A stretch of DNA of 64,000 nt from an uncultured Clostridia bacterium (GCA_947630065.1 CANRGE010000001.1:18840-82839); one strand, 5' to 3'; shown: positions 23,720 to 59,258, counted from the first letter of the stretch. Notes: generated from the sequence alone by a model not told the origin. Translations and numbers: made by a program.

Positions 23720-24676
23720 TTAAATAAAATCATTAAATTCTTTTTTTATTCTTTTGATTTGTTCCTTAGAGAAATTTGAAAAATCTATATGAGAATTAAA
23801 ATTATCATAATTTAAAGAACGTGATACATCTTGTAGATGATATATAGCATAATTCCCCAATGCCACATTTTTTATTTCACGCTATTCTATATTTATTAAG
23901 CCCCAACTATTTAATAAATTAAGATATAAACGAATATTGGTATAACATATACTATTTGTATCACCATGACCCAAAATAAAACAAATATTCCTTATAGAAA
24001 AATCCTTATCATAAGGTATTGATGTTTTATTTAACTCTTTTAAATATAAGTATGTTCTTAATAAATCTATATTTTGACTATTTACCTTTGCGGGTTTTAG
24101 TAAAATTTCTGTAATTGCTTTATCATAATCTGTTGAAAAATTAGGAGTAATATAATAGTAATCACAATCTATCTTAATTAAATTATTATCACATAATTTA
24201 GCTAACGTATTATAAAAAGTTTGAGTACTTTTAATTCCTAAATTTTTACAAGTTTCTGAAATATTAAAGAAGTTTTTATTTATTCTTAAATTAGTCTATT
24301 CATCTGTTAAAATATTAGCTAAATTTATCATATAATAATATAATAACCACTATTTATTAGTTAATTTAATAGAGGAATTATCAATATTATTTTGACAAAA
24401 ACTTCCCTCGCCTCCAATAGTTCTATTATATCCATTTTTATAGCTATCATAGTAGCTAATCCAAAACTATTCTCTTTCATTTAACTATTGCTATGAACAT
24501 TCTTCTATAACATCAAAAGAAAAGTTATCTATTCTATTTACTTTCATATCCTAATATAAAGGATTATAAAGGTCTTTACATTTTTTATGTTCTCTCCAGC
24601 GTCTTTTAATATCAATAGATTGTCCTATATATACTTTTTTATTAACATTATTAGTAATTTTATAAATTCCTATCAT
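23720..24676 (-). CDS. free-standing GIY-YIG homing endonuclease (318 aa, 7 in-frame TAG)
   Basis: MIGIYKITNNVNKKVYIGQSIDIKRRWREH...NERE(TAG)FWISYYDSYKNGYNRTIGG. AGGTGA RBS. Absent from the ORF track because of TAGs. Confidence 0.75.
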
Positions 24677-24741
24677 TATTATTCACCTTATATAAAAAAG
24701 AAAGTTAAAGCCTATAAGACTCCAACTTTCTTTAGCTAATA

Positions 24742-24813
24742 TCACCGCAATTGGATTTGAACCAATGGTCTTGCCGTGAAAGGGCAAAGTCTTTACCACT
24801 TGACTATGCGGTG
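24742..24813 (-). tRNA. tRNA-Glu (anticodon UUC)
   Basis: Acceptor CACCGCA/TGCGGTG, D arm GTCAAGTGGTAAAGAC, anticodon arm TTGCC-CTTTCAC-GGCAA, T arm ATTGGTTCAAATCCAAT. Confidence 0.8.
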
Positions 24814-24817
24814 AGAA

Positions 24818-24888
24818 TTGCGGAACAAGGAGTCGAACCTTGATTTGAAGATAATGACTCTTCTGTCCTACCTTTAGACGATTCCGCG
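24818..24888 (-). tRNA. tRNA with anticodon CAU (Met, fMet or Ile2)
   Basis: Anticodon arm GAAGA-GTCATTA-TCTTC, T arm CAAGGTTCGACTCCTTG. The C1-A72 mismatch is like bacterial initiators, but the anticodon stem lacks the GGG/CCC run. Confidence 0.65.
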
Positions 24889-24889
24889 A

Positions 24890-24957
24890 ATTGCTATGTG
24901 AGGAATCGAACCTCACACCCTGTCTCGTCGCTAGTGTACTCCTTATACTAATAGCTA
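24890..24957 (-). ncRNA. aberrant tRNA-like element (no foldable anticodon arm)
   Basis: Canonical T arm GTGAGGTTCGATTCCTCAC, D-like GTAT-AAGGA-GTAC, acceptor TAGCTAT/ATAGCAA with one mismatch. Only about 19 nt lie where the anticodon arm plus variable loop should be, and I could not pair them. Confidence 0.3.
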
Positions 24958-25102
24958 ACCTTACTTCATGAAGTATTTTTCATATTAGAAAATTTAATTA
25001 TAATAAAACAATAAACACAAGCGTTCCAACAATTTGTTTTATCAATTTAACTTTACTATTTACTTTTAAAGGTAAGCTGAAAGTTATTAAAGCTGACCCA
25101 AG

Positions 25103-25176
25103 TTACGGTGGAAGGATTTGAACCTTCGGAGTGACGGAGTTAGAGTCCGCTGCCTTACCCGCTTGGCTACACCGTA
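25103..25176 (-). tRNA. suppressor tRNA, anticodon CUA (reads UAG), tRNA-Gln-like body
   Basis: TACGGTG TA GCCAAGCGGGTAAGGC A GCGGA CTCTAAC TCCGT CACTCC GAAGGTTCAAATCCTTC CACCGTA A. The anticodon is at 25141-25143. U1-A72, the D arm and the anticodon-stem GGA/TCC core match the tRNA-Gln(UUG) at 30050-30121. Confidence 0.85.
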
Positions 25177-25233
25177 ATAAATACTTTGAATAACAAAATA
25201 ATTAAAATTCTAAATTAAATAAATATATTATTA

Positions 25234-25851
25234 TTAAATTAAAATCCAATCTTCATCACTAATATTGTTAATGTCTTTCTTTTTACAAGGTAATCCTTCA
25301 TATTTACACCAATGTATAATTGTGTTATCACTAACACCATACATTTTACCTATTTTAACAAATGATGTAGTTCTAATTAAATTTTTTAATTCTTCTCTTG
25401 ACGGTCTATCAACTATTCTTCTACATTTTGCTACACAAGTGTTACATAATCCAGTTTTAGTTTTTTCATAAAGTTGCTTTCCACATTCAGAACAAAAATG
25501 TAAAGTTTTTTCTCTTAAAAGTTTTTTCTTCTCTCTTAATATGTTTGCATAATTCTCATCATATACTTTTTTCTATTCTAAATATTCTACAATATATAAT
25601 CCCGCATGAATTTCTCTATGACAATTAGCACAAACCAAAATACATTTTTTTAATTCTTCTAAATCTTTTTCTAAATCATGTGTGTTTCCTGTTGAAAGAC
25701 CATATTTTTTCTCTTCTGATATAATATGATGAAATTCTAATGCTGAATTAACCTTATTATATCCACATAAGCAACATCTCCCACCTGCGACTTTTACTAA
25801 ATTATCTTTACGCTTTCTTCTATAATTAGAAACATCTGTAGAACAACTCAT
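25234..25851 (-). CDS. free-standing HNH endonuclease with C-terminal HTH (205 aa, 1 in-frame TAG)
   Basis: CCLCGYNKVNSALEFHHI...KCILVCANCHREIH. The TAG at 25573 is followed in frame by ...HFCSECGKQLYEKTKTGLCNTC...IGKMYGVSDNTIIHWCK, ending at TAA 25234. Confidence 0.75.
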
Positions 25852-25871
25852 TATTCCTCCTTATAAATAAT

Positions 25872-25900
25872 ATTATATCATAATTTCTATAAAAAGTCAA
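25872..25900 (-). promoter_or_regulatory. sigma70-type promoter, family copy 8 (HNH gene and downstream tRNAs)
   Basis: Minus strand: TTGACT, 17 nt, TGaTATAAT. Confidence 0.6.
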
Positions 25901-25904
25901 ATAT

Positions 25905-26141
25905 TCAAGATTCCTCTAATGAAGATGGAATTACTCGTATTTGTGTTCGTGCTGTTACACTACATTCTTTTATATCAACTACCTTTACACGAGTGCCATA
26001 ACAAATATAATTATAATTATTATCCACCATTCTAATGATAGAACCTTTTTCTGGAATTTTCTCCTCTTCATTTAATTCATAATCATAAGTTTTGCCACGA
26101 AAAATCTTATTCTTATCTTTGAATTGAACAGTAATAAACAT
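25905..26141 (-). CDS. hypothetical protein
   Basis: Intact 78-aa ORF, AAGGAAG RBS, TGA stop. Confidence 0.5.
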   Translation of the reverse strand: MFITVQFKDKNKIFRGKTYDYELNEEEKIPEKGSIIRMVDNNYNYICYGTRVKVVDIKECSVTARTQIRVIPSSLEES

Positions 26142-26175
26142 AGATAACTTCCTTTCTGTTTTCTTTTATAATAAT

Positions 26176-26204
26176 ATTATATCATACTTTTTCCAAAAAG
26201 TCAA
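26176..26204 (-). promoter_or_regulatory. sigma70-type promoter, family copy 9
   Basis: Minus strand: TTGACT, 17 nt, TGaTATAAT. Confidence 0.6.
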
Positions 26205-26208
26205 ATAT

Positions 26209-26502
26209 TTATTTTTTTATTATTTGTGAAGAAAAAACCTCTTTTGTAATTTTTTTATCAAAATAATTCTTAATAAGTTGTAAGTTTTCTTCAATAAAAT
26301 CATTAACTTTCATAACAGCATCTATATCAACTTCACCCTTAGAACTGACTATTTTTATGGATTTATTGTAAAAAATATGAAATTCTTCACCGCTACTTCC
26401 ATATAAATAAAAATTTATATTATGACTACCTAAAACATTCGGCTCATCAAAAACTAAATCATACTTAAATCCTGTTGTTCTTTTAGAAAGGAAAACTCCC
26501 AT
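26209..26502 (-). CDS. hypothetical protein
   Basis: Intact 97-aa ORF with AGGTGAG RBS. Confidence 0.5.
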   Translation of the reverse strand: MGVFLSKRTTGFKYDLVFDEPNVLGSHNINFYLYGSSGEEFHIFYNKSIKIVSSKGEVDIDAVMKVNDFIEENLQLIKNYFDKKITKEVFSSQIIKK

Positions 26503-26507
26503 TTAAC

Positions 26508-27163
26508 TCACCTATTTAAATATTTTCTCTTTTCTTTGTTCTCATCTGATAATCCCATCAATACTCCTTCTCCATTATCAGCTACAAAAAATAAACGTTT
26601 CCGATTGCTTTCAGATATATAACATTTACAATTGGGTAATGCTCCCATCATATCAAGTAAAAATTGTGAATTAACAGAGATAACATTTTTTCCTAAAAAC
26701 CAAGCACCAGCAACATAATTTTTGGTTTCCCAGTATATTCTGCTTTATGAATTTTCACTGCTGCTTTTAACTCCTGTATAGAGGGAAGTTTAATCTCCAT
26801 GTCATAAGTACGTGATTTTTCTATAGTATCTAAGAAAAGAGAATTACTACTATCATCATCTAATTCCTCTAATTCCATGGGTTCAAAAAATTTTACAATC
26901 CTATAACTATCACAAATATATTGATTCCCATAAATTATTTTTGCACCTAATTTTATATTAGAAAATTCTGACATTTTTTTAGCTGATTTCAAAATACGCT
27001 TTGCGGCAGAGTATATTTTTGTGCTACCTTTTGACCGCATACTTTTTGTACAAATATCTTGTTTTATAGATGTTATTAAATTGTCTAATTCGAGCTTTGT
27101 TGCATCGTCCACTGTGGCAGTGGAGATTTTTACAAGTCTATTAAGCAATACTTCACTTGTCAT
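26508..27163 (-). CDS. hypothetical protein needing a -1 frameshift (or homopolymer correction) near 26719-26723
   Basis: Frame 1 starts at ATG 27163 after AAGGAG and ends at TAG 26693. The -1 frame continues ...NYVAGAWFLGKNVISVNSQFLLDMMGALPNCKCYISESNRKRLFFVADNGEGVLMGL to TGA 26508 with no start codon of its own. The shift site is CCA AAA ATT. Confidence 0.4.
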
Positions 27164-27189
27164 ACTATTTCTCCTTAACAAAATATTAT

Positions 27190-28119
27190 TTATTTTAAAT
27201 TTGCATTTCTTTCCCAAAAAATTCCATCTGCATATCCTTGAATTTTTTTATTTTCATCAGCCATTTCAAGTCTTTGTTCTGTCCATACACAATATTGTTT
27301 CTCTGCTTCAATGCCTAAATAATGTCTGTCAAGTTTCTTTGCAACAACACTTGTTGTTCCTGAACCTAAAAATGGGTCAAAAATTATATCTTTCGGATTA
27401 GAACTTGCCAATATCATTTTGGCAATAAGTTTTTCGGGCTTCTGTGTCGGGTGAGCAGTGTTTTCTGGCATCGACCAAAAAGGGATTGTTATATCGTCCC
27501 AAAAATTCGATGGGCAAGTATCACGATAATTGCTGGAATCTGTTTCAATCCAATCTTTGGGCTTTCCATCAACTCGATAAGGAGCAATAACCTTTTTGCG
27601 GATTTTGACTGAATCAAGGTTAAATGTATAATCATTACTTTTTGTAGCAAACCAAATGTCTTCCATTCCGTTTTTCCAGTTTGCCTTTGCACCACGACCT
27701 TTTTCTCTCTGCCATGTGATTCGGTTTTTGATGGTAAAAAATTCACCTAAAACTCTACCCACAATCAAACTCGTTTCCCAATCGCAGTAAACATATATTG
27801 AACCCGTTGGCTTTAACAGTGATTCTACTATTTCAAGCCATTTACGAGTATATTCTTCGTATTCAGTGTATTTTAGCTTTGTAAATTTTGTATTCCCAAA
27901 TACTTTGCTTAAATTATATGGTGGGTCTGCAATAATTAAATCCACACTTTCTTTAGGTAAATTAGGAATTACAGAAAAAGTATTCCCTAAAATGGTTTTA
28001 TCCAATACCGATTCAATATTTTGAATCGGTAAATCAACCTTGATACACCGTGAAAGATACTGTTGTCCTTCTGAAACAGTAGTATCAATTGTTTTATTCC
28101 TCGTAGATTTCTTATTCAT
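27190..28119 (-). CDS. DNA methyltransferase (N4/N6 family)
   Basis: DLIIADPPYNL, NTAHPTQKPEKLI and FDPFLGSGTTSVVA motifs. No TAG. Confidence 0.85.
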   Translation of the reverse strand: MNKKSTRNKTIDTTVSEGQQYLSRCIKVDLPIQNIESVLDKTILGNTFSVIPNLPKESVDLIIADPPYNLSKVFGNTKFTKLKYTEYEEYTRKWLEIVESLLKPTGSIYVYCDWETSLIVGRVLGEFFTIKNRITWQREKGRGAKANWKNGMEDIWFATKSNDYTFNLDSVKIRKKVIAPYRVDGKPKDWIETDSSNYRDTCPSNFWDDITIPFWSMPENTAHPTQKPEKLIAKMILASSNPKDIIFDPFLGSGTTSVVAKKLDRHYLGIEAEKQYCVWTEQRLEMADENKKIQGYADGIFWERNANLK

Positions 28120-28156
28120 TCTATATCACCTATTCATTTTAATAAGTATTTTGTAG

Positions 28157-28229
28157 TGCGCTTAGTGAGAATCGAACTCATACTCTCTAGATTAAGAATC
28201 TATTGCTCTACCTATTAAGCTATGGGTGC
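28157..28229 (-). ncRNA. tRNA-Lys(CUU)-like gene with three C-A mismatches in the acceptor stem
   Basis: Good D arm GCTTAATAGGTAGAGC, anticodon arm TAGA-TTCTTAA-TCTA, T arm ATGAGTTCGATTCTCAC. The acceptor is 5' GCACCCA against 3' TAAGCGC, with 3 of 7 positions as A-C or C-A. Confidence 0.45.
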
Positions 28230-28262
28230 ATTAAATTTGATTTTCTCTTTTTTACTATAATT

Positions 28263-28291
28263 ATTATAACATATTTTCAAGAGAAAATCAA
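28263..28291 (-). promoter_or_regulatory. sigma70-type promoter, family copy 10
   Basis: Minus strand: TTGATT, 17 nt, TATAAT. Confidence 0.55.
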
Positions 28292-28312
28292 ATTTTCAGT
28301 TTTTTTATTTTA

Positions 28313-28561
28313 TTAAAAATTTTCAATCAATTTTCTGCCACATTCTGGGCAAAATTTTGGAATATAATATCCTATATCTTCTCATTCGCCTCTACTTTCA
28401 TTCCATTTTGAAAATATGACTGTTGTTGCCATATTACTTCCAGATTTTATTTGTATATCATAGTCTTTTAAAGCTATACCAATTCCTATATAACTTAAAT
28501 CATTTTCTGGAGTTAATATTGACTCAACGGCGGCATTACAATAATATTTACAATATTGCAT
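28313..28561 (-). CDS. small Cys-rich protein with an in-frame TGA at 28382-28384
   Basis: The ATG overlaps the RNA ligase TAA (TAATG). MQYCKYYCNAAV...KWNESRGE(TGA)EDIGYYIPKFCPECGRKLIENF then TAA. The 22 codons after the TGA look coding (zinc-ribbon CPEC) but have no start. Confidence 0.4.
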
Positions 28562-29871
28562 TAAACACCTTCTTTCATCAATTCTTCAACTTCTTCTATG
28601 TCAGGTACTTCTGCTGTATCTTTAATTATGCCTTCTAATACCTTAAAGGCAAACGATTTAGTTTTATAAGCTGTAAAATGAGTTCTATTATCAATTCTTA
28701 CTACAACACCTTCAGTAACATGACTACCATTTGCTAAGGGTTCAGGTATATCCAAATATTTTTCGCATCTCTCATTTAAATCTTCCCAAGTTGTATATAA
28801 AAATTTTTCAACAAGCGGCACATATTCACAACCAAATCTTTCACACCATTTTATAGTTTCCTCTGTAGGTAATTCTATAGTTAATCCATCATCATTAGTT
28901 AAAGTTATACGATAGATATAACATTTATTTTCACCGCGGGCGCAACCATAAGTGAATATTGTTTCTTTTCCATACATTTTTTTGAAGTTTTTGTCTTTTA
29001 ACTTACTATTATCACACGTAGGCATTATAGGGGTATTTTCATCTATCCAGCCAACTATTTCTCCATATACAGTCATGCCTTTAGGCAATTTGTCAGCAAA
29101 AAAATTATGATATTTTTCACGGAATTTATTAGAGCCGTAAAAGCCACCATTAAAATTATCAAGAACAACACGACGAGTACCACTAACAACTTCAAATTCA
29201 GATTTAGTTTTGTCTTTTAAATGGAAAAGTTTCTTTAATATTTTATTTCTTTTTATGGTAGTAACCTTTAAAGTATTACTTACTCTAAAAGAAGTGCCAT
29301 GAAGCTTTCTGGTTATGTAGATAATATCATTTTTTTTGAAAGCACTTTCATTGTAAGCTAACTGTGCAGTGTCTATATGTTCTTCAAAGTAAGGGAAGCC
29401 AACAGTTTTGCGAGCTTCTTTTTTATTTTTAGCAATTTTAGGATTAGAAACATTAGATACTGTTTTACCGCGAGGTATATATTTCTGACATATAAGTTCA
29501 CCGTTAAGGACGGCAATTTTGTCGCCGTCAGATAATTTAGTTATGTCAGTATATTTTGCTAATACAGAAATAGGTAAGGCAAGACCATCAGATTTTTCGC
29601 CGCGAAGATTCAAAGCGCGTATGTTTCTTTTGTAAGGGTCAAGATAACCACCAACATTATTTCCATTTTCATCTTTCCTACGAACTAAATTGTTTTCGTT
29701 TGCAAATTTTTCACTAACTTGACCGTCAACAGGAAAATAAACAACTTTATCACCAACCTTATAGTCTAAACCAACTATAACGTTGTTGCCAAATATTTCG
29801 CAGCACTGTAATCTATCTGCATTAGAATGTTTGCGGATTTTATTTATAGTAGTTATATATGCACAATACAT
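28561..29871 (-). CDS. ATP-dependent RNA ligase (N-terminal OB-domain type)
   Basis: N-terminal INKIRKHSNADRLQCCEIFGNNVIVG...VVYFPVDG, motif I ITRKLHGTS, motif IV TEGVVVRID, motif V FTAYKTKSFAF. Sits between two tRNA islands. Confidence 0.7.
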   Translation of the reverse strand: MYCAYITTINKIRKHSNADRLQCCEIFGNNVIVGLDYKVGDKVVYFPVDGQVSEKFANENNLVRRKDENGNNVGGYLDPYKRNIRALNLRGEKSDGLALPISVLAKYTDITKLSDGDKIAVLNGELICQKYIPRGKTVSNVSNPKIAKNKKEARKTVGFPYFEEHIDTAQLAYNESAFKKNDIIYITRKLHGTSFRVSNTLKVTTIKRNKILKKLFHLKDKTKSEFEVVSGTRRVVLDNFNGGFYGSNKFREKYHNFFADKLPKGMTVYGEIVGWIDENTPIMPTCDNSKLKDKNFKKMYGKETIFTYGCARGENKCYIYRITLTNDDGLTIELPTEETIKWCERFGCEYVPLVEKFLYTTWEDLNERCEKYLDIPEPLANGSHVTEGVVVRIDNRTHFTAYKTKSFAFKVLEGIIKDTAEVPDIEEVEELMKEGV

Positions 29872-29909
29872 CTATTTCTCCTTTCATATCTCTCATCTTT
29901 ACTATAATT

Positions 29910-29938
29910 ATTATACCATATTTTGAAGAAAAAATCAA
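29910..29938 (-). promoter_or_regulatory. sigma70-type promoter, family copy 11
   Basis: Minus strand: TTGATT, 17 nt, TATAAT. Confidence 0.55.
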
Positions 29939-29966
29939 ATATTTTAATAAAAATTTTTCTTTTGAC

Positions 29967-30047
29967 TGCGCCCAGCAAGACTCGAACTTGCACGCCATAA
30001 GACATTAGAACCTAAATCTAACGTGTCTGCCATTCCACCATGAGCGC
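29967..30047 (-). tRNA. tRNA-Leu (anticodon UAG), class II
   Basis: Acceptor GCGCTCA/TGGGCGC, anticodon arm TTAGA-TTTAGGT-TCTAA, long variable arm TGTCTTATGGCGT, T arm GCAAGTTCGAGTCTTGC. Confidence 0.85.
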
Positions 30048-30049
30048 AA

Positions 30050-30121
30050 TTGTGGTAGCAGGATTTGAACCTGCGCATAATGGAGTCAAAGTCCATTGCC
30101 TTACCACTTGGCTATACCACA
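30050..30121 (-). tRNA. tRNA-Gln (anticodon UUG)
   Basis: TGTGGTA TA GCCAAGTGGTAAGGC A ATGGA CTTTGAC TCCAT TAT GCGCAGGTTCAAATCCTGC TACCACA A, with a U1-A72 pair. Confidence 0.85.
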
Positions 30122-30133
30122 AAATTTATATAA

Positions 30134-30817
30134 TTACATTAGCCGAGATTTAGCAATATCATAATAATTACTATCTATCTCAATGCCAATGAATTTTCTA
30201 TTAGTGTTTTTACAAGCGATTCCTGTCGTCCCGATTCCCATAAATGGGTCAAGAACTATTTCATTTTCTTTAGAAGAATTTTCAACAAATATTTGCATAA
30301 GTTCTACTGGCTTTTCTGTATTATGCAAATTTTTACCATCTTTACCTTTTGTTTTTACATTCTTAACTGATAATATATCACTCGTTCCACAATTATTTAT
30401 GCGGACTCCTTTACCTTTACGAAAAAACAAAATATATTCAAATGCTGACATATAATATTGCCCCATCACTTTATTACCCTTATCCCAAATCAAAGATTTA
30501 ATAAAATGAAAGCCGTTTTGCTCAAAAGTATTGAGCATATGAATAAGATTTTTATGATTAGTCATTATATAGCAATGACCACCATCTTTAAGAACTCTGT
30601 AAAATTCTGGGGCATATTCTTTACAATCTGTACTGTTATATGCAAAAACATTGCCATCATTAAAAATTCTTTCTTGCAACATACCACCAGTATTACCCGC
30701 ATTTCCTCTTGTAGTAACCTTATATGGTGGGTCAGTAATTAACAAATCAATACTATTATCTTGTATTTCTGAAAAATAATCCATACAATTAGCACATATT
30801 AGTTGCATTTTCTCCAT
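30134..30817 (-). CDS. DNA methyltransferase (N4/N6 family)
   Basis: DLLITDPPYKV, NTEKPVELM and LDPFMGIGTTGIA motifs. No TAG. Confidence 0.85.
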   Translation of the reverse strand: MEKMQLICANCMDYFSEIQDNSIDLLITDPPYKVTTRGNAGNTGGMLQERIFNDGNVFAYNSTDCKEYAPEFYRVLKDGGHCYIMTNHKNLIHMLNTFEQNGFHFIKSLIWDKGNKVMGQYYMSAFEYILFFRKGKGVRINNCGTSDILSVKNVKTKGKDGKNLHNTEKPVELMQIFVENSSKENEIVLDPFMGIGTTGIACKNTNRKFIGIEIDSNYYDIAKSRLM

Positions 30818-30829
30818 ACTTTTTCTCCT

Positions 30830-31789
30830 TTAAGCTACTTTTAAAGCTTTACTTTCTAACAAAATTCTCTTTTCAATAGATTTTGCTGGTAACTCTTTAG
30901 CAAATTCTGTAACTGCATTTATAAAAGCCCATTTACTTGGTGTACCATATTCTTTTGTGTAAGTATTGAAAATAGTAATAACTTTTTCAGCTTCTTTATT
31001 ATTAAGCTGCAACTCTTTAGCAACATATGTCTTTTTAAAATCATCTTGTAATTCTTGAATTGTTGCCGTTTCAGCTGTTGTTTGTGAAACTATTTTTTGA
31101 ATTTCTCCTTTTTTTTCTGAAAGAAATTCCACACTTTCACTAAACTCTGCGGCAATATCTTTTCTACCTCTATGAACAGCTCTGCAAAGTATAAAATCGT
31201 TAATAGGAATTATCATACCATTTTCGCAAACTTGTCTATATACTCCAACTCTAATCTTAAAAGCACTCTTTCCAACCATTGAGTTGTCTATGTAATAAAG
31301 CATATACAAGTTGCTATCATCATTATCTACTGTAAAAGGATTATCAAGGTCAATTGCACGAAGATGTAATCTTTCTGGCGTAGTAAGAGCATATTGAAAA
31401 CGATATTTTGCAAGAGGACTATCATTGATAATATTCATTACTTCATTATCATCAAAATAAGAATATTTATCAGTTACTATTCCATAAATTTTATCATAAA
31501 ATTCTCTGGCATAAAGTTCTCGTTTGTTTTTATCACAGAAGTTTGTCACTCTATCACGTATAATCTTATTTGCAAGTGATGAATTAGTAGTACTAATTTC
31601 TGTGATAAAATTAGCAGGAAAACCAACTGCTTTTCCAAGACTTTTTAATCCATATTCAGAGTAGTTACTTATATTACATATTTTGTCAAAATTAGATGCT
31701 TCAATATGAAAAGTATTCTCTGTATCTGTTATGCTTTTTATAGACTGTCTTACATCATTAAAGCTCATTGTTCTTGATTTAATATTCAT
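30830..31789 (-). CDS. DUF932-like protein
   Basis: 319-aa intact ORF. VGVYRQVCENGMIIP matches the R.vC.NGm signature I associate with DUF932. Confidence 0.5.
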   Translation of the reverse strand: MNIKSRTMSFNDVRQSIKSITDTENTFHIEASNFDKICNISNYSEYGLKSLGKAVGFPANFITEISTTNSSLANKIIRDRVTNFCDKNKRELYAREFYDKIYGIVTDKYSYFDDNEVMNIINDSPLAKYRFQYALTTPERLHLRAIDLDNPFTVDNDDSNLYMLYYIDNSMVGKSAFKIRVGVYRQVCENGMIIPINDFILCRAVHRGRKDIAAEFSESVEFLSEKKGEIQKIVSQTTAETATIQELQDDFKKTYVAKELQLNNKEAEKVITIFNTYTKEYGTPSKWAFINAVTEFAKELPAKSIEKRILLESKALKVA

Positions 31790-31828
31790 ATCAATTCTCC
31801 TTTTTAGACAACTAATAATATTTGCGAA

Positions 31829-31917
31829 CGGTGTGGGTGAGATTTGAACTCATACATCAATAGCTGATTACTGACGGTTTAGCAAACCGCTGCCTTACCA
31901 ATTAGGCTTACCACACC
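31829..31917 (-). tRNA. tRNA-Ser (anticodon GCU), class II
   Basis: Acceptor GGTGTGG/CCACACC, anticodon arm GCGGT-TTGCTAA-ACCGT, long variable arm with ATCA/TGAT stem, T loop TTCAAAT. Confidence 0.8.
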
Positions 31918-31931
31918 TTGTAAAATGATAA

Positions 31932-32031
31932 TGTGGTATGCAAGTCCTGCCCTTGCTGGTCGTTACCTATCGAATAAACGACCTATTTTCGATAGGTTGA
32001 ATATGCGTCATCTCGCCGCATTGATACCACA
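31932..32031 (-). ncRNA. structured RNA candidate X1 (closing stem, two hairpins, H-type pseudoknot)
   Basis: Minus strand: TGTGGTAT...ATACCACA (8 bp), ATGCG/CGCAT hairpin, CCTATCGAA/TTCGATAGG (9 bp) whose loop GGTCGTT pairs with downstream AACGACC (7 bp), and GCAAG-GGCAGGA-CTTGC next to the 3' closing strand. GC-rich island in AT-rich DNA. Confidence 0.45.
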
Positions 32032-32082
32032 TATAATAAACTATTTTACTTTATAACTATTGATTATATGATTTTTATTTAG

Positions 32083-32242
32083 TGGAGCGCACGAGCCTCG
32101 AACTCGCAACCTCTGTCAGCTAACAGCGTGCCTATCCGCGACAATCTACATACTTATGAAACGCTACTTTCAAAGTTTCGCCAAGCTGCTCCCCTGCATT
32201 ACAGTGAGTCTTATACTTGTTTTGTCTATACACCCGCGCCCC
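32083..32242 (-). ncRNA. tRNA-Ala-like / tmRNA-like element X3 (G3-U70 acceptor, T arm, about 107-nt insert, 4-nt loop in place of anticodon loop)
   Basis: 5' GGGGCGC pairs with 3' GCGCTCC-A, including a G3-T70 wobble. T arm GCGAG-TTCGAGG-CTCGT, D-like GCG-GATAGGCA-CGC, stem CTGTT-AGCT-GACAG. About 107 nt separate the 5' acceptor strand from the D arm. Confidence 0.45.
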
Positions 32243-32245
32243 AAA

Positions 32246-32314
32246 TGGTACTGATAGTAGGACTTGAACCTACACATTTGATATAATCATTGTTCTTCAT
32301 TAAACTATATCAGC
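32246..32314 (-). ncRNA. tRNA-like element X2 with encoded CCA and a 3-nt loop in place of the anticodon loop
   Basis: GCTGATA TA GTTT-AATGAA-GAAC A (A)TGAT-TAT-ATCA(A) ATGT GTAGG-TTCAAGT-CCTAC TATCAGT A CCA. Standard cloverleaf spacing except the anticodon loop is 4 nt short. Ends 3 nt before X3. Confidence 0.45.
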
Positions 32315-32467
32315 ACATGAATAAGCTGATTTACCTCACAGCCATTGGTCGTGTTAATTTTATTCATGCGTGAGAACACAAACTCACTACTCTTAACGCC
32401 GAGTCCACGCCTACTCATATTTCTTTTATATCCATATTATTGATATAAATTACTCTATTTTCAGTTT

Positions 32468-32544
32468 TGGTACGCCTTAATGGATTTGAACCATCAACTT
32501 ACCGCTTAGAAGGCGATTACTCTATCCTATTGAGTTAAAGGCGT
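32468..32544 (-). tRNA. tRNA-Arg (anticodon UCU), CCA encoded
   Basis: ACGCCTT TA ACTC-AATAGGATA-GAGT A ATCGC-CTTCTAA-GCGGT AAGTT GATGG-TTCAAAT-CCATT AAGGCGT A CCA. Confidence 0.85.
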
Positions 32545-32547
32545 ATA

Positions 32548-32620
32548 AGCTGAATGACGGACTTGAACCGTCAACCTGTTGATTACAAATCAACTGCACC
32601 ACCAATTGTGCTAATTCAGC
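32548..32620 (-). tRNA. tRNA-Thr (anticodon UGU)
   Basis: GCTGAAT TA GCAC-AATTGGTG-GTGC A GTTGA-TTTGTAA-TCAAC AGGTT GACGG-TTCAAGT-CCGTC ATTCAGC T. Confidence 0.85.
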
Positions 32621-32792
32621 ATAGAATATTTTTAAATATTCCTCTTGTGTACAATTACGACAAGCTTCTTTTTTCGCTTTCTTTTTTTTGTTTTCAATTA
32701 CTTTGTGTCGCGGCAAATCTTGTAGAAGTTTTCTTTTAGTACCAAAATAAAATTGTTTTTTAGTCATTTTCTTTTTCATTGTTACTACCTCT

Positions 32793-33128
32793 TTATTTTT
32801 TATATATGGAGTAATTACAATTTTCGTTATCGTTATCGTTATCGTTTAAGAGAAATATTTCTCTTATACCACTCTCCGTATCATATTTACAAATAGCTCT
32901 ATATTTTGAACCAGTATTTAATAATGTTAAAATGGATTCAAGTCTGCCTCCCCATTCAAATAAGCTATTTGTATAACTTTCTTTTGCTTCAACACATTCT
33001 GTTTCTGATATATAGTTATTATCACAATTTTTCTATGTTTCTTTTATACACATTACAAAACGGTTTATTTGTGTACAAATACGTCTTAATTCTTTTTCAA
33101 TAATCTCAAATTTTATTTCCACATTCAT
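32793..33128 (-). CDS. hypothetical protein (111 aa, 1 in-frame TAG) with (Asn-Asp)3 repeat
   Basis: MNVEIKFEIIEKELRRICTQ...KET(TAG)KNCDNNY...FLLNDNDNDNENCNYSIYKK. The cgttat x3.5 repeat at 32825-32846 encodes NDNDND. Confidence 0.5.
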
Positions 33129-33149
33129 AACCTTCCTCTTTTTATTAAG

Positions 33150-33460
33150 TGCAGGAAAAGGGACTTGAACCCTCACGACCGAAGTCAATGGATTTTCGTA
33201 CCACTCTATGTCACCATAGCCATTTTACAATGTTGTGGTCTGGAGTACGTCTTTACCATATCTTATGACTTAGGTAGTTGGTGTATACTCTCTACACACG
33301 GTTAAAAACCTTGCACGGCGTTCTCTATTCGCCTTCGCCGTTTTAGCCAACTTCTACTCTTAGCGTTTCCGCTAAGGCACTCTCTATTTTTTAAATAGTA
33401 TTACTTAAAGTAACAGAATAGATTAAAGTCCATTGCGTCTGCCTATTCCGCCATTCCTGC
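33150..33460 (-). tRNA. tRNA-Leu (anticodon UAA) interrupted by a group I intron in the anticodon loop
   Basis: 5' exon 33460-33426: GCAGGAA TG GCGGAATAGGCAGACGC A ATGGA CTT. 3' exon 33196-33150: AAAA TCCAT TGACTTCGGTCGT GAGGG-TTCAAGT-CCCTT TTCCTGC A. Joined loop is CTTAAAA. The mature class II tRNA is 82 nt. Confidence 0.85.
33197..33425 (-). mobile_element. group I intron (229 nt) between U34 and A35 of tRNA-Leu(UAA)
   Basis: Follows a U and ends in G (…GAGTGGTACG). Same insertion point as the classical cyanobacterial and plastid tRNA-Leu intron. GC-rich paired segments such as GCCTTAGCG-GAAA-CGCTAAG and GGCG..CGCC. Confidence 0.8.
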
Positions 33461-33475
33461 ATTTTCTATAATAAT

Positions 33476-33504
33476 ATTATATCATAGATTTTTTAGAAAA
33501 TCAA
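33476..33504 (-). promoter_or_regulatory. sigma70-type promoter, family copy 12 (tRNA-Leu UAA)
   Basis: Minus strand: TTGATT, 17 nt, TGaTATAAT. The predicted start is about 10 nt upstream of the tRNA 5' end. Confidence 0.6.
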
Positions 33505-33526
33505 ATATTTATTTTTAATTTTCTAA

Positions 33527-33596
33527 TTTTCTTGGTGGGAGTCGAACCCACATTACCTACTTTATGTAGGTATCCTTCCATTTAGACCACAAGAAA
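33527..33596 (-). ncRNA. unusual 70-nt tRNA-like gene (anticodon loop CAUAAAG)
   Basis: Perfect acceptor TTTCTTG/CAAGAAA, T arm GTGGG-TTCGACT-CCCAC, anticodon stem ACCTA/TAGGT. The loop has A at position 33 and would present UAA on a class I body with a 3-nt variable loop. Confidence 0.45.
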
Positions 33597-33600
33597 ACCA

Positions 33601-33780
33601 AACTTTTAACTTCAATAGATAAGGTGTTTTAACCGACTTGTGTAGCTACATAGCCTTTTAACTTTGGCTAATAATAGGATAAGGTAGCTTAACCGACCAG
33701 ATTTCGCCGCATAACTAAGGGCTATTATTTATCTTTTTAACTTTTAAGGGTAAGGTGTTTTCACCGACCTTTTTGTTTTT
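33601..33780 (-). repeat. three imperfect ~35-nt direct repeats phased exactly 60 bp apart
   Basis: Plus-strand cores ataaggtgttttaaccgac (33622-33647), ataaggtagcttaaccgac (33682-33707) and gtaaggtgttttcaccgac (33749-33767), each preceded by cttttaactt. Each core can form a GGT(N6)ACC mini-hairpin. Lies between a family promoter and the tRNA-like gene. Confidence 0.5.
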
Positions 33781-33788
33781 CTATATAT

Positions 33789-33817
33789 ATTATATCATAG
33801 ATTTCTTAGAAAATCAA
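33789..33817 (-). promoter_or_regulatory. sigma70-type promoter, family copy 13
   Basis: Minus strand: TTGATT, 17 nt, TGaTATAAT. Would transcribe the repeat region at 33780-33601. Confidence 0.6.
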
Positions 33818-33822
33818 ATATT

Positions 33823-34092
33823 TTATTTTTCTGTGAAAATGTAAACATATTTTCCGTCTTTTCTAATATATATTACATTAAAAATGAAATTTTCAGGTTC
33901 TTTGTCAACAAATTCTATTTGCCTTTTCTTTTTATTATGAAAATCTTCCTCTAAACTTTTTCTAAACATTACTTTACTGGCTCTTATGCGTTGTGCATCA
34001 ACAACTTTTAATTTTTCTTCTTCATTTTTCTGTAAATACGTAATTTTTAAAATAAAATGTGCTTTTAAGAAACTTAAATCCATTCTTTTCAC
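33823..34092 (-). CDS. hypothetical protein
   Basis: Intact 89-aa ORF with GAGGTG RBS. Confidence 0.5.
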   Translation of the reverse strand: MKRMDLSFLKAHFILKITYLQKNEEEKLKVVDAQRIRASKVMFRKSLEEDFHNKKKRQIEFVDKEPENFIFNVIYIRKDGKYVYIFTEK

Positions 34093-34106
34093 CTCTCTAT
34101 AATTAT

Positions 34107-34135
34107 ATTATATCATAAAAAAGAGAGAGAATCAA
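34107..34135 (-). promoter_or_regulatory. sigma70-type promoter, family copy 14
   Basis: Minus strand: TTGATT, 17 nt, TGaTATAAT. Confidence 0.6.
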
Positions 34136-34139
34136 ATAT

Positions 34140-34550
34140 TTATTCTTCACCTTTTACAAAATAAACTATATCTTCTGTTTTTTCATTTTCGGGCAAAGCC
34201 TGATAATCTGTATTAGATATTTCTTTATGTGTTATTTTATCTTCTTTATTTTCTAAAACAGTAATTCTGGCTTCATAAGACTCAAAAGTCTTTTTATTCT
34301 ATTTATTCTATTCAGTAATTTTATCATCTAAAGTAGTTTGCTGTCCTGTTAAATCTTGTATCTAACCATCTAATTGTTCTATCTAATCCCTTATTTCCTA
34401 AAATAATTCAGGATTTTCTTTTAATAATTCTTTTACATATTCTTTTATTTGTTCTTCATCTATAGAATTACCTTTTATTGGACGGCGTGCAAAATAAGCT
34501 GGGTCAAGAGTGTCGTCTTTGGTAAAAAATTGTTCCTAAAATAAAATCAC
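34140..34550 (-). CDS. coiled-coil protein with DDTLDPAYF motif (136 aa, 6 in-frame TAG); paralog of 62596-62880
   Basis: GTG start after AGGGAGG. ILF(TAG)E(TAG)FFTKDDTLDPAYFARRPIKG..., then a heptad-like region. Confidence 0.5.
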
Positions 34551-34627
34551 AACTAAAACCTCCCTTTTTAAGTATTGGGACGCGAAATCCTAATTATAAA
34601 GTGAGATTCTTTGTAAAATTATCTAAA

Positions 34628-35089
34628 TTACATCTTTTTAATATGAAATAATAAAATTATCAAATTATCATCGTCTGCCTTATAAGCTACATATCCATGC
34701 ACTCTGAATAATGGAGTTGGGAAAAATTTGCAATAAAAATGTTCTGTTTCGGTAGAAAAACTTTCAATTTCTGCCGCGACATCATCTAAATGATTTTTAT
34801 CAATATCAATACAAGATAAAAATTCTAATATTTTATCAAAAACATCAAAAGGCTCTTCTAATAAACAAAGCCTCCCCTCAATTAAAATAGGAACATTTGA
34901 TGAAATTAAACGATTTTTACAAATAACTTTTTTCTTTATTAAATCTTTATAAACTTCTCCACATACAATTTCTCTGGCAGGACGAACTAATTCCAAATAC
35001 CTAACCTATTTATTACAAAAAAAGTTATGAAGTGGTTCAAAAATTTCTATTTTTATATTATCATCTTTATAGATAGTATGTAAATCCAT
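34628..35089 (-). CDS. hypothetical protein (153 aa, 1 in-frame TAG)
   Basis: The ATG at 35089 overlaps the helicase TAA. MDLHTIYKDDNIKIEIFEPLHNFFCNK(TAG)VRYLELVRPAREIV... joins track ORF 34628-34996. Confidence 0.5.
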
Positions 35090-51340: not shown

Positions 51341-51389
51341 TTATTATTTATATCATTATTATTATAGTTAAGAAAAATAAAAGATAGTT

Positions 51390-51469
51390 ATTTAATAATG
51401 CGTTAGCATTATTAAATATTCCTATATTAACATGAGTAATTACGTAGTAATTACGAGTGTTAATATAGG
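51390..51469. repeat. two adjacent long palindromes in the divergent intergenic region
   Basis: atttaataatgc-gtta-gcattattaaat (51390-51417, 12-bp stem). cctatattaaca...tgttaatatagg (51421-51469, 12-bp arms) encloses two copies of the self-complementary octamer gtaattac. Confidence 0.7.
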
Positions 51470-51627
51470 AACTAAAATAACTTATAATATATATATTATA
51501 AAAATATTATTATAACAATATATTATTACATAAAAATAAATATTATTTATATAAAAAATTAAATATTATATAGATATTTTAATATTATTTAAAATAATTA
51601 TTTAAAATAAATAGGAGGGAGAAAATT

Positions 51628-57905: not shown

Positions 57906-58118
57906 ATGAGTAAGTTTTTAGTTGCTTTTTCAGCCCCTACCATGCATTATATGAACGATAAGGACTTTTATACAGAAGTATATGAAATTGAAGTTAATAA
58001 AAACGACCTCTCTATTGAAAAAGAAAAACTTTTAAGAAAGTTTTGTATTAGTCATAATGTAGCACTTAATGATGCTTTTGAATTATGGACTCTAAAAGTT
58101 AAACAGCCAGTTAAATAA
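57906..58118 (+). CDS. hypothetical protein
   Basis: Intact 70-aa ORF with GGAGGA RBS, its own promoter and terminator. Confidence 0.5.
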   Translation: MSKFLVAFSAPTMHYMNDKDFYTEVYEIEVNKNDLSIEKEKLLRKFCISHNVALNDAFELWTLKVKQPVK

Positions 58119-58122
58119 TTTT

Positions 58123-58149
58123 AAGCCCCTTTAAAGGGGCTTCTTTTTT
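58123..58149 (+). terminator. rho-independent terminator (plus strand)
   Basis: aagcccct-ttaa-aggggctt followed by cTTTTTT. Confidence 0.75.
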
Positions 58150-58153
58150 ACCA

Positions 58154-58181
58154 TAAAAAAATCCACGATTTAATCGTGGAT
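58154..58181 (-). terminator. rho-independent terminator (minus strand, end of tail-fibre operon)
   Basis: atccacgat-tta-atcgtggat with a T7 run on the minus strand. Convergent with the plus-strand terminator. Confidence 0.7.
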
Positions 58182-58190
58182 TCTTTATTG

Positions 58191-59258
58191 TTATTGAACT
58201 GTAACAGTTCCCTCTGTTCCAGTAAAAGACGGTTGTGTGATAGTTCCTTTAGGAGTGTAAGTGATACTAACAGTTGCATCATCACCAGTAAATACAGGCT
58301 TACTAATATCACCTTCGGGAGTATAATCAACACTAATAGTTGAAGGAGTTCCTGTAAAAGTTGGAGTTGCAATAGTCCCTGTAGGAGTATAGGAAGCTGT
58401 TAATGTTGAAGCACTTCCTGCAAATGTAGCAGTTAAATCAGTAGGAGTTCCAGTAAAAGAGGGTGTGGTAGTAGTTGCTGATTTAATTCCAGTTACAACA
58501 GTTACTGCACTTCCCTAAGTCGGCAATGCACCAGTAGTCCATTTAAGCTCCAAAGTTTCATCAGCCACAGTTGTTTCAAGACTGGGTAATGTACCGACTG
58601 ATGTAATCGGCGTTATAGTGTCAGTATTGGGAGTAACTGTAGTTGTTAATGCACCAATAGTACCAGCGGGAGTGTAATTACCTGAACTACTTACAGGAGA
58701 TGTTGCTTTTATGGTTACATTTCCAGACGGAGTGTAACTATTTGTAGTTATTGTATCTGCGCCGCCAGTGAATGTTAAACTACCTATAGTGCCTTGTGGC
58801 GTAAAGGCAGTTGAAAGTGTTTTCTTAGTGCCAGTAAATGTCAAATCGCCAACAGTACCTGTAATAGAAACATTGGAATCAGTCAAAGTTTCCTGCGTAC
58901 CACTAAAAGTAATAGCTGAAATACTACCTTGTGGTGTGAATTTGCCTGTTGCACTATCCTTAAAGGCTAAAGCCTTTAATGACCCCATGTCACCAAATTC
59001 TTTCCATTGAGTGCCATTCCAAGCAAACTCTTTATCATTATATATTACTACATCACCAGAATTTGGCGTTACGCTATCAGTGTCTATTTGAATAGGAGAA
59101 GTAGTAGATTTATCCGTTATTTGAGTAGTTGTTTCTCCTATGTAGTGCATTGCACCAGTTAATCCAGTTTTTAAGTCACTTATTTCTTGTCTTGCCTATG
59201 TGTCTTTAATGTTATATGTATTACCGCTTGGTAATTTTATTTTAGAAATATCAGGCAT
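58191..59258 (-). CDS. tail fibre protein 1 with periodic YTPxGxI...FTG repeats (355 aa, 2 in-frame TAG)
   Basis: N-terminus MPDISKIKLPSGNTYNIKDT(TAG)ARQEISDL. At least 8 repeats of about 25-30 aa of the form (F/Y)TPxG(T/S)I..(L/P)(T/S)F(T/S)G. ORF 58515-59150 continues past TAG 58515 to TAA 58191. Confidence 0.65.

Follow-up and report, generated by a model that had tools for sequence, protein, structure and literature searches.

What kind of RNA, if any, is encoded by the 100 nt that lie between a serine tRNA gene and a row of tRNA mimics in a phage genome? An initial annotation of this locus, here called element X, had described a structured RNA of five helices, two of them joined in an H-type pseudoknot, and had assigned it to no known class. 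We ask whether the predicted fold stands out from chance, whether the pseudoknot is possible, how far X resembles a tRNA, and which explanation best fits its setting. The window, to which all unprefixed coordinates refer, is the whole stretch of 64,000 nt that was analysed.

The phage and its tRNA row

The window comes from a 153-kb contig (G000:C1, 29% GC) that was binned with a 2.15-Mb genome of 27% GC. The contig is that of a phage. Its genes are encoded almost entirely on the minus strand, and those for an RNA ligase, DNA methylases, a UvrD-type helicase and a lysin are among them. Many of the core genes are open only when TAG is read as a residue, and a tRNA with the matching CUA anticodon is present (Table 1). 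The minus strand also carries all 10 tRNAs called by ARAGORN in the window and the 11 tRNA matches of Rfam. Because every tRNA in the window is on this strand, we read X on the minus strand too, so that position p of X corresponds to window position 32032-p.

Upstream of X, the minus strand has three copies of a strong promoter (TTGATT-17-TGnTATAAT), and a scan called no terminator-like site in 31600-34200, an interval that includes the stretch from promoter to X. Another multi-branch structure of ~106 nt is found in the same row (32315-32421, minus strand), between the tRNA-Arg gene and a tRNA-like gene with a 3-nt loop, and stops exactly at the start of the latter. It has a 12-bp end-to-end stem (AUAUGAGUAGGC/GCUUAUUCAUGU) around three hairpins, and its z-score is only about -1.7 to -2.0.

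All of the tRNAs and mimics fall within a tRNA and accessory island of ~10 kb (24676-34628), which also encodes two methylases, the RNA ligase, DUF932, and GIY-YIG and HNH-like proteins. Part of the island is bracketed by the GIY-YIG gene and a weak HNH gene. Island genes contain 0-1 in-frame TAG codons, compared with up to 11 in core genes. Relatives located through the UvrD-type helicase (60-67% identity) share the gene order on either side and likewise translate TAG as Gln, but lack the island (24.7-34.6 kb).

Table 1. Coordinates of element X, its parts and the neighbouring features
Feature	Position in X	Window position	Strand	Remarks
Element X, predicted 100-nt four-way-junction RNA		31932..32031	-	RNAfold, shuffles
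Closing stem, 5' strand UGUGGUAU	1-8	32024..32031	-	Acceptor-like
Closing stem, 3' strand AUACCACA	93-100	31932..31939	-	UUA next, no encoded CCA
D-arm-like hairpin AUGCG-GCGAGAUGA-CGCAU	11-29	32003..32021	-	Pair probabilities 0.87-0.97
Long third arm ACCUAUCGAA/UUCGAUAGGU, 10 bp, 13-nt loop AAUAGGUCGUUUA	35-67	31965..31997	-	Pair probabilities 0.62-0.97
S2, 5' strand GGUCGUU	49-55	31977..31983	-	Within long-arm loop
S2, 3' strand AACGACC	68-74	31958..31964	-	'Variable region'
T-arm-like hairpin GCAAG-GGCAGGA-CUUGC	76-92	31940..31956	-	5-bp stem, 7-nt loop
tRNA-Ser(GCU)		31829..31917	-	14 nt downstream of X, same strand
tRNA-Ala-like 160-nt RNA		32083..32245	-	51 nt upstream of X, same strand
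Nearest upstream promoter copy, TTGATT-17-TGnTATAAT		33476..33504	-	Motif scan
tRNA-Gln(UUG) of the phage		30049-30122	-	
tRNA with CUA anticodon		25102-25176		75 nt, tRNA-Gln-like; ARAGORN

A stable predicted four-way junction

RNAfold predicts four nested helices of 8, 5, 10 and 5 bp for X, with 28 pairs and no mismatch, and this structure is both the minimum free energy (MFE) fold, at -32.6 kcal/mol, and the centroid. The closing stem runs end to end and is followed, after a 2-nt linker, by a short hairpin in which positions 11-15 pair with 25-29 around a 9-nt loop that lacks GG. A 5-nt linker separates this second arm from the long third arm. The core of the latter (CCUAUCGAA/UUCGAUAGG, 36-44 with 58-66) has 9 bp and is extended to 10 bp by A35-U67, and its loop contains a UAG triplet. 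An 8-nt 'variable' stretch then leads to the last hairpin (76-80 with 88-92), which abuts the 3' closing strand at position 93 with no spacer. All five complementarities that had been listed initially are present at 31932-32031 on the minus strand.

Compared with 4000 dinucleotide shuffles, X has a z-score of -4.05, and three shuffles fold as well as the native sequence. True tRNAs of the same cluster score between -0.1 and -3.8, so X is more extreme than any of them. Its GC content is 46% versus 28% for the window, a value that some coding stretches equal. X itself does not look like a coding sequence: on the minus strand, the open reading frame has only 12 codons (table 11), or 37 if TAG is read as Q, and lacks a ribosome-binding site, and the 42-codon frame on the plus strand runs opposite to the direction of all genes. 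These results uphold the first impressions that nested complementarity on this scale is unlikely by chance and that a compact, unusually stable, GC-rich structure occupies a non-coding gap in the tRNA row.

Could X nevertheless be a chance fold in a GC-richer intergenic patch, or a DNA-level site for protein binding or recombination? When the whole window was scanned with a cruder, GC-adjusted method, X came out at only about -2.5 SD, a value calculated manually from the fitted curve and the GC content of X. The residuals of at least 45 windows are more negative, so the stability of X alone is not unique. The plus strand of X also folds (-30.6 kcal/mol, z = -3.5), and because every pair is Watson-Crick, the fold gives no indication of strand. 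Both observations would fit a chance fold or a DNA site. Against them stand the rarity of equally stable shuffles, the closing stem, whose two 8-nt strands are parted by 84 nt and make little sense in DNA, and the placement of X exactly in the tRNA row, with the junction spacing of a tRNA and the acceptor of tRNA-Gln (see below). We consider this explanation highly improbable, and a structured RNA is plausible on the basis of the folding models.

After GC adjustment, the 100-nt windows at 51381-51520 and 58081-58240 are the most stable of the whole scan. One of the two reaches -40.5 kcal/mol at 22% GC, on both strands, and lies near a strand-switch region at ~51.2-51.6 kb, where GC drops to 8-20%. 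An origin, a bidirectional terminator or a long inverted repeat could account for it.

A possible extra helix that may compete with the long arm

The fifth complementarity is the 7-bp helix S2, which would form between the loop of the long arm and the stretch that follows the arm. When the unpaired bases of X were shuffled, a 7-nt Watson-Crick complement between two unpaired segments arose in 0.14% of cases (p ~0.0014), so S2 may well be more than an accident.

The initial annotation had combined S2 and the 9-bp helix into an H-type pseudoknot. In this type of pseudoknot, the loop that crosses the shallow groove of stem 1 lengthens with the stem. In X, A68 would pair with U55 beside A44-U58, the pair that closes the loop of the long helix, and G66 and U67 are at the far end of that helix. 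Between G66 and A68 there is U67 alone, or no nucleotide when A35-U67 pairs. The pseudoknot as drawn is excluded because at most 1 nt would have to span 9-10 bp; the 9-bp and 7-bp helices cannot coexist at full length.

Two other arrangements would accommodate S2, and as the 7-nt complement is improbable by chance, one of them probably matters. It is possible that S2 belongs to a mutually exclusive alternative fold, as the predicted folds that contain it have energies of -29.4 to -30.2 kcal/mol, 2.4-3.2 above the MFE. A shortened pseudoknot, in which the inner 5-6 bp of the long helix are retained alongside the 7 bp of S2 with a crossing loop of 4-5 nt (63/64-67), is also possible and geometrically feasible. 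Rough nearest-neighbour sums, made without a pseudoknot energy model, suggest that it would be approximately isoenergetic with the simple arm.

These alternatives raise the idea that X works as a conformational switch, as a pseudoknotted regulatory RNA or as an undescribed small self-cleaving ribozyme, which would make sense both of the improbable complementarity and of three states that lie within ~3 kcal/mol. We view such a function as very unlikely, given that no Rfam ribozyme or riboswitch matches X at E<=10, that the pseudoknot as drawn is sterically impossible, that no regulated gene is obviously attached and that no conservation is seen.

So, is X a tRNA?

The order of parts in X is that of a cloverleaf, with an acceptor-like stem directly on a T-arm-like hairpin (0 nt between them) and a 2-nt linker to a D-arm-like hairpin. 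The initial annotation had correctly placed the 5-bp/7-nt hairpin at the 3' closing strand in the position of a T arm, and had missed that X as a whole is laid out in this way.

Despite its layout, X cannot read codons. Because the third arm has 10 bp and a 13-nt loop, X is without U33 or an anticodon frame. None of the three loops is that of a tRNA: GCGAGAUGA has no GG, AAUAGGUCGUUUA has 13 nt, and GGCAGGA is not a T-loop of the U54-A58 type. ARAGORN makes no minus-strand call over X in default, -ps80, -ps60, intron, mitochondrial or tmRNA mode, and no RF00005 match overlaps X at the gathering score (29 bits) or, in a 1-kb stretch searched with lax filters, at E<=10. A tRNA-Sec-like decoder is no better a candidate, since X takes on a class II fold only at a penalty of 7 kcal/mol relative to the MFE, and the loop is then UCGAAAA, with C at position 33. 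Local alignments with the neighbouring mimics are not significant, so X does not appear to be their paralogue. More generally, no family of any kind in Rfam 15 overlaps X on either strand at E<=10, in line with the earlier failure to match it to a known class of RNA.

Possible descent from tRNA-Gln

The ends of X are those of one tRNA in particular. X and the phage tRNA-Gln(UUG) begin with the same 8 nt, UGUGGUAU. The tRNA ends in UACCACA-A, and the last 7 nt of X are identical to its 3' acceptor strand. The seven outer pairs of the closing stem are the acceptor stem of tRNA-Gln(UUG), UGUGGUA/UACCACA. The T stems (GCAGG/CCUGC in tRNA-Gln versus GCAAG/CUUGC in X) differ by one compensatory change from G-C to A-U. 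The complete T arm of tRNA-Gln is GCAGG-UUCAAAU-CCUGC, and X has the loop GGCAGGA instead. In the IMG/VR contig G101, the fetched relative with the most similar RNA ligase (76% identity), tRNA-Gln(UUG) is encoded 4 nt upstream of tRNA-Ser(GCU), the position that X takes here. Together, the identity of the acceptor, the compensated T stem and the position in G101 suggest that X descends from a tRNA-Gln gene.

The likeness is confined to part of the molecule. Overall, the local alignment of X with tRNA-Gln is not significant, and the 3' part aligns once the T-loop is deleted. As the D and anticodon arms retain no significant similarity to tRNA-Gln, they appear to have been replaced rather than eroded. 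When a covariance model built from X alone (R1) was run with filters off, the best weak matches in related phages were ordinary class II tRNAs, at no more than 20.5 bits and E ~0.01, in keeping with a cloverleaf topology.

Is X then only the functionless, remodelled remains of a tRNA-Gln gene, which would be transcribed as a structured spacer and either discarded or left to linger by virtue of its stability? The acceptor stem shared with the phage tRNA-Gln, the 3' part that aligns with it and the G101 position would all be expected of a relic. So would the outcome of the searches described below, in which no homolog was found and X was not recognisable beside the Ala-like RNA of another contig (L014). 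However, 28 nested pairs without a mismatch, together with the 7-nt complement and the raised GC content, are unlike decay, and arms that were replaced rather than eroded also argue against it. A relic therefore seems unlikely to us, though less so than the other alternatives considered here.

Searches for relatives and strain variation

No homolog of X was found by blastn against 50,697 phage records, or by BLAST against genomes related to the host bin (100 relatives and 400 members of its family). Exact and degenerate patterns of X, matched against public viral, metagenome and genome contigs, also gave no homolog and hit one random coding sequence. R1 detected nothing significant in the phage's own genome, in 7 IMG/VR relatives, in 28 fetched loci, in tRNA clusters searched with filters off, or in 400 class-level genomes, and nhmmer found no X homolog over all fetched loci. 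Anchoring the search on the DUF932 neighbour led only to the same phage and to loci without these RNAs, and anchoring on the RNA ligase led to no X homolog. The 111-aa island protein is an orphan.

The Ala-like RNA upstream of X does have a relative, at L014:2377-2534 (contig from logan:ERR14656754; E = 2.8e-31, ~88% identity, with an identical core of 41 nt). There it lies just downstream of a DUF932 gene that is 65% identical to the one in the window, whereas in the window it lies upstream of DUF932. The gene and the RNA are linked in two different arrangements. Two other L014 proteins were found on L014 alone, and patterns derived from the conserved Ala-like RNA gave no useful match. In the 116 nt after the Ala-like RNA of L014 (2535-2650), where the contig ends, there is no model or profile similarity to X. 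Because this tail is unlike X, X is not visibly co-conserved with the Ala-like RNA, with the proviso that L014 has another gene order and is truncated. The contig breaks off within a GC-richer stretch of this tail, which begins UGUGGAGAU at 2596.

Among assemblies of the same phage, X is identical in four others. A fifth, L010 (ERZ27249337), differs from the window at 2 of 5255 positions, both of which are inside X (window 32022 and 32018; L010 63 and 67). The first, A10U, is in the linker, and the second, C14U, turns C14-G26 into U.G and keeps the helix on the minus strand only. Both changes preserve the minus-strand fold, but they are weak evidence because they lie 63-67 nt from the end of a contig with 4.8x coverage and are possibly assembly errors. 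The L010 contig stops at the exact 3' end of the Ala-like RNA, a possible sign of strain heterogeneity upstream.

A tRNA-derived, non-decoding RNA?

We favour, with moderate confidence, the interpretation of X as a tRNA-derived small structured RNA that does not decode. Given the promoters upstream and the lack of a terminator-like site between 34200 and 31600, X is most likely part of a long polycistronic tRNA precursor. Transcribed on the minus strand from the TTGATT/TATAAT promoters, this precursor would span tRNA-Thr, tRNA-Arg, two other tRNA mimics, X and tRNA-Ser and extend into the DUF932 gene. The enzymes that process the neighbours could release X. Once RNase P had cut at the 5' side of tRNA-Ser, and possibly at that of X itself, and the 3' end of the Ala-like RNA had matured, only short AT-rich tails would remain on X, and RNase Z or exonucleases may trim these back to the 8-bp end stem. 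The 13-bp stack of acceptor and T stem might be recognised directly by RNase P or RNase Z, although recognition by these enzymes or by the CCA-adding enzyme is not assured, because X lacks a T-loop and a D-loop with GG.

The same setting could hint at a role in cis, with X guiding or blocking RNases for the benefit of the tRNA mimics, tRNA-Ser or the DUF932 mRNA. X has neither promoter nor terminator of its own and lies between two processed RNAs, separated from them by short AT-rich spacers, and its end-to-end stem would halt exonucleases. A simple hairpin would suffice for this purpose, however, and the four-way junction, the tRNA spacing and the competing helix all exceed the need. Moreover, other tRNA pairs in the cluster are spaced just 1-3 nt apart and have no such element between them. 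A processing or stability element is thus, in our estimation, decidedly unlikely.

If X is indeed a non-decoding derivative of a tRNA, it would have kept the tRNA-Gln-type acceptor on a T-stem-like hairpin and the junction spacings of 2 nt and 0 nt. It would have lost the D-loop, the T-loop and the anticodon loop, and its middle would have become a 10-bp arm with a loop able to pair with the 7 nt that follow. X is most likely a stable tRNA-shaped RNA that acts via its acceptor end or its exposed loop. It may serve as a decoy or binding partner for a host or phage protein that recognises tRNAs, with the species 1 and 2 RNAs of T4 as a possible parallel. A far more specific scenario can be drawn, in which X has evolved expressly to imitate the tRNA-Gln acceptor end and, in place of an anticodon arm, carries a bistable or pseudoknotted module with the UAG loop. 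Such an RNA might bind a factor in Gln-tRNA formation or UAG reading, such as GlnRS, GluRS/GatCAB, release factor 1 or the CUA suppressor tRNA, and help to time the recoding of UAG to glutamine on which this phage relies. We regard this scenario as far-fetched.

As a singleton without relatives, known from its sequence alone, X adds little by itself for now. Yet phage tRNA clusters repeatedly hold tRNA-shaped genes that do not decode, with at least three in a row beside X, and X represents an extreme case in which all that is left of a tRNA is the acceptor stem and the junction geometry, every loop having been replaced. Should X turn out to be processed into a stable RNA, it would help to establish how little of a tRNA the processing machinery requires, and would provide a test case for phages that turn tRNA scaffolds into small RNAs or decoys.

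Comparison with known RNAs

X shares with canonical tRNAs (RF00005) a four-way junction, an acceptor on a 5-bp/7-nt hairpin, the 2-nt linker and a place in a row of tRNAs on the same strand. It differs from them in its 8-bp acceptor, the 5-nt linker between the second and third arms, the 10-bp third arm and the absence of a T-loop. Bacterial tRNA-Sec has an 8/5 acceptor-T geometry, acceptor-T domains of 13 bp (8/5) or 12 bp (8/4, 9/3) characterise tRNA-Sec and allo-tRNA, and the 8/5 geometry of X recalls both. Unlike X, both decode, with a 7-nt anticodon loop, a T-loop and a long variable arm. Irregular tRNAs with long acceptor stems have been described in polycistrons and phage tRNA clusters from uncultured samples, including Clostridia (Mukai et al. 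2017, PMC5389517).

Tracts with tRNA-like ends around a non-tRNA middle, in which pseudoknots are possible, are also found in the tRNA-like domain of tmRNA and in YrlA/Y RNAs. X is not a tmRNA, as its third pair is U-A rather than G3-U70, there is no tag reading frame, and ARAGORN and Rfam are negative. Nor is it a YrlA/Y RNA: there is no RF02553 match on X, and the sole subthreshold YrlA match in the 1-kb scan is over tRNA-Arg/tRNA-Thr. A Y-RNA role is further disfavoured because no Ro60/TROVE gene was found in the 2.15-Mb bin, including the phage contig, in a search that detected its positive controls.

The tRNA clusters of related phages hold other unusual elements. In the IMG/VR relative G105, one such element, 105 nt long, receives no ARAGORN call (L065:2974-3078). 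Its ends pair in an 8-bp stem (UGUGGCAA/UUGCUACA), which is followed after a 2-nt linker by a hairpin, then by a long capped arm and by a canonical T arm, GUAAG-UUCAAAU-CUUAC. The element has the same layout as X, but homology is unproven, and its R1 score of 13 bits is no better than that of tRNAs. Two further elements without an ARAGORN call occur in the IMG/VR relatives G105/G102. One is a 132-nt tRNA-Leu-like gene with an insert of ~45 nt (L065:7401-7532), and the other is a tRNA-shaped element of 68 nt with a short middle (L068:898-965). The relatives found through the RNA ligase also encode tRNAs with a CUA anticodon (L064:11856-11948, L065:10285-10379, L066:3515-3606 and L067:10186-10280). 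These are 92-95 nt long with a long variable arm (class II body), in contrast to the 75-nt tRNA-Gln-like version in this phage. It may therefore be that tRNA bodies of different kinds read UAG in related phages, and that its meaning as an amino acid differs among them too.

A parallel in setting comes from phage T4, in which rnaC (species 1) and rnaD (species 2) directly follow tRNA-Arg (NC_000866, 70908-71171). With filters off, R1 matched neither rnaC nor rnaD, so the likeness does not extend to homology of sequence or structure. The 139-nt rnaC folds with paired ends and has a canonical T arm (GGUUCGAAUCC) near its 3' end, which X lacks. The T4 species 1 and 2 RNAs have been shown experimentally to be stable, whereas X is a prediction; to our knowledge, no function has been established for them since their description. 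In both phages, however, a non-tRNA RNA is encoded inside a tRNA cluster, on the same strand as the tRNAs and beside one of them, and both clusters hold a GIY-YIG endonuclease gene (segB in T4).
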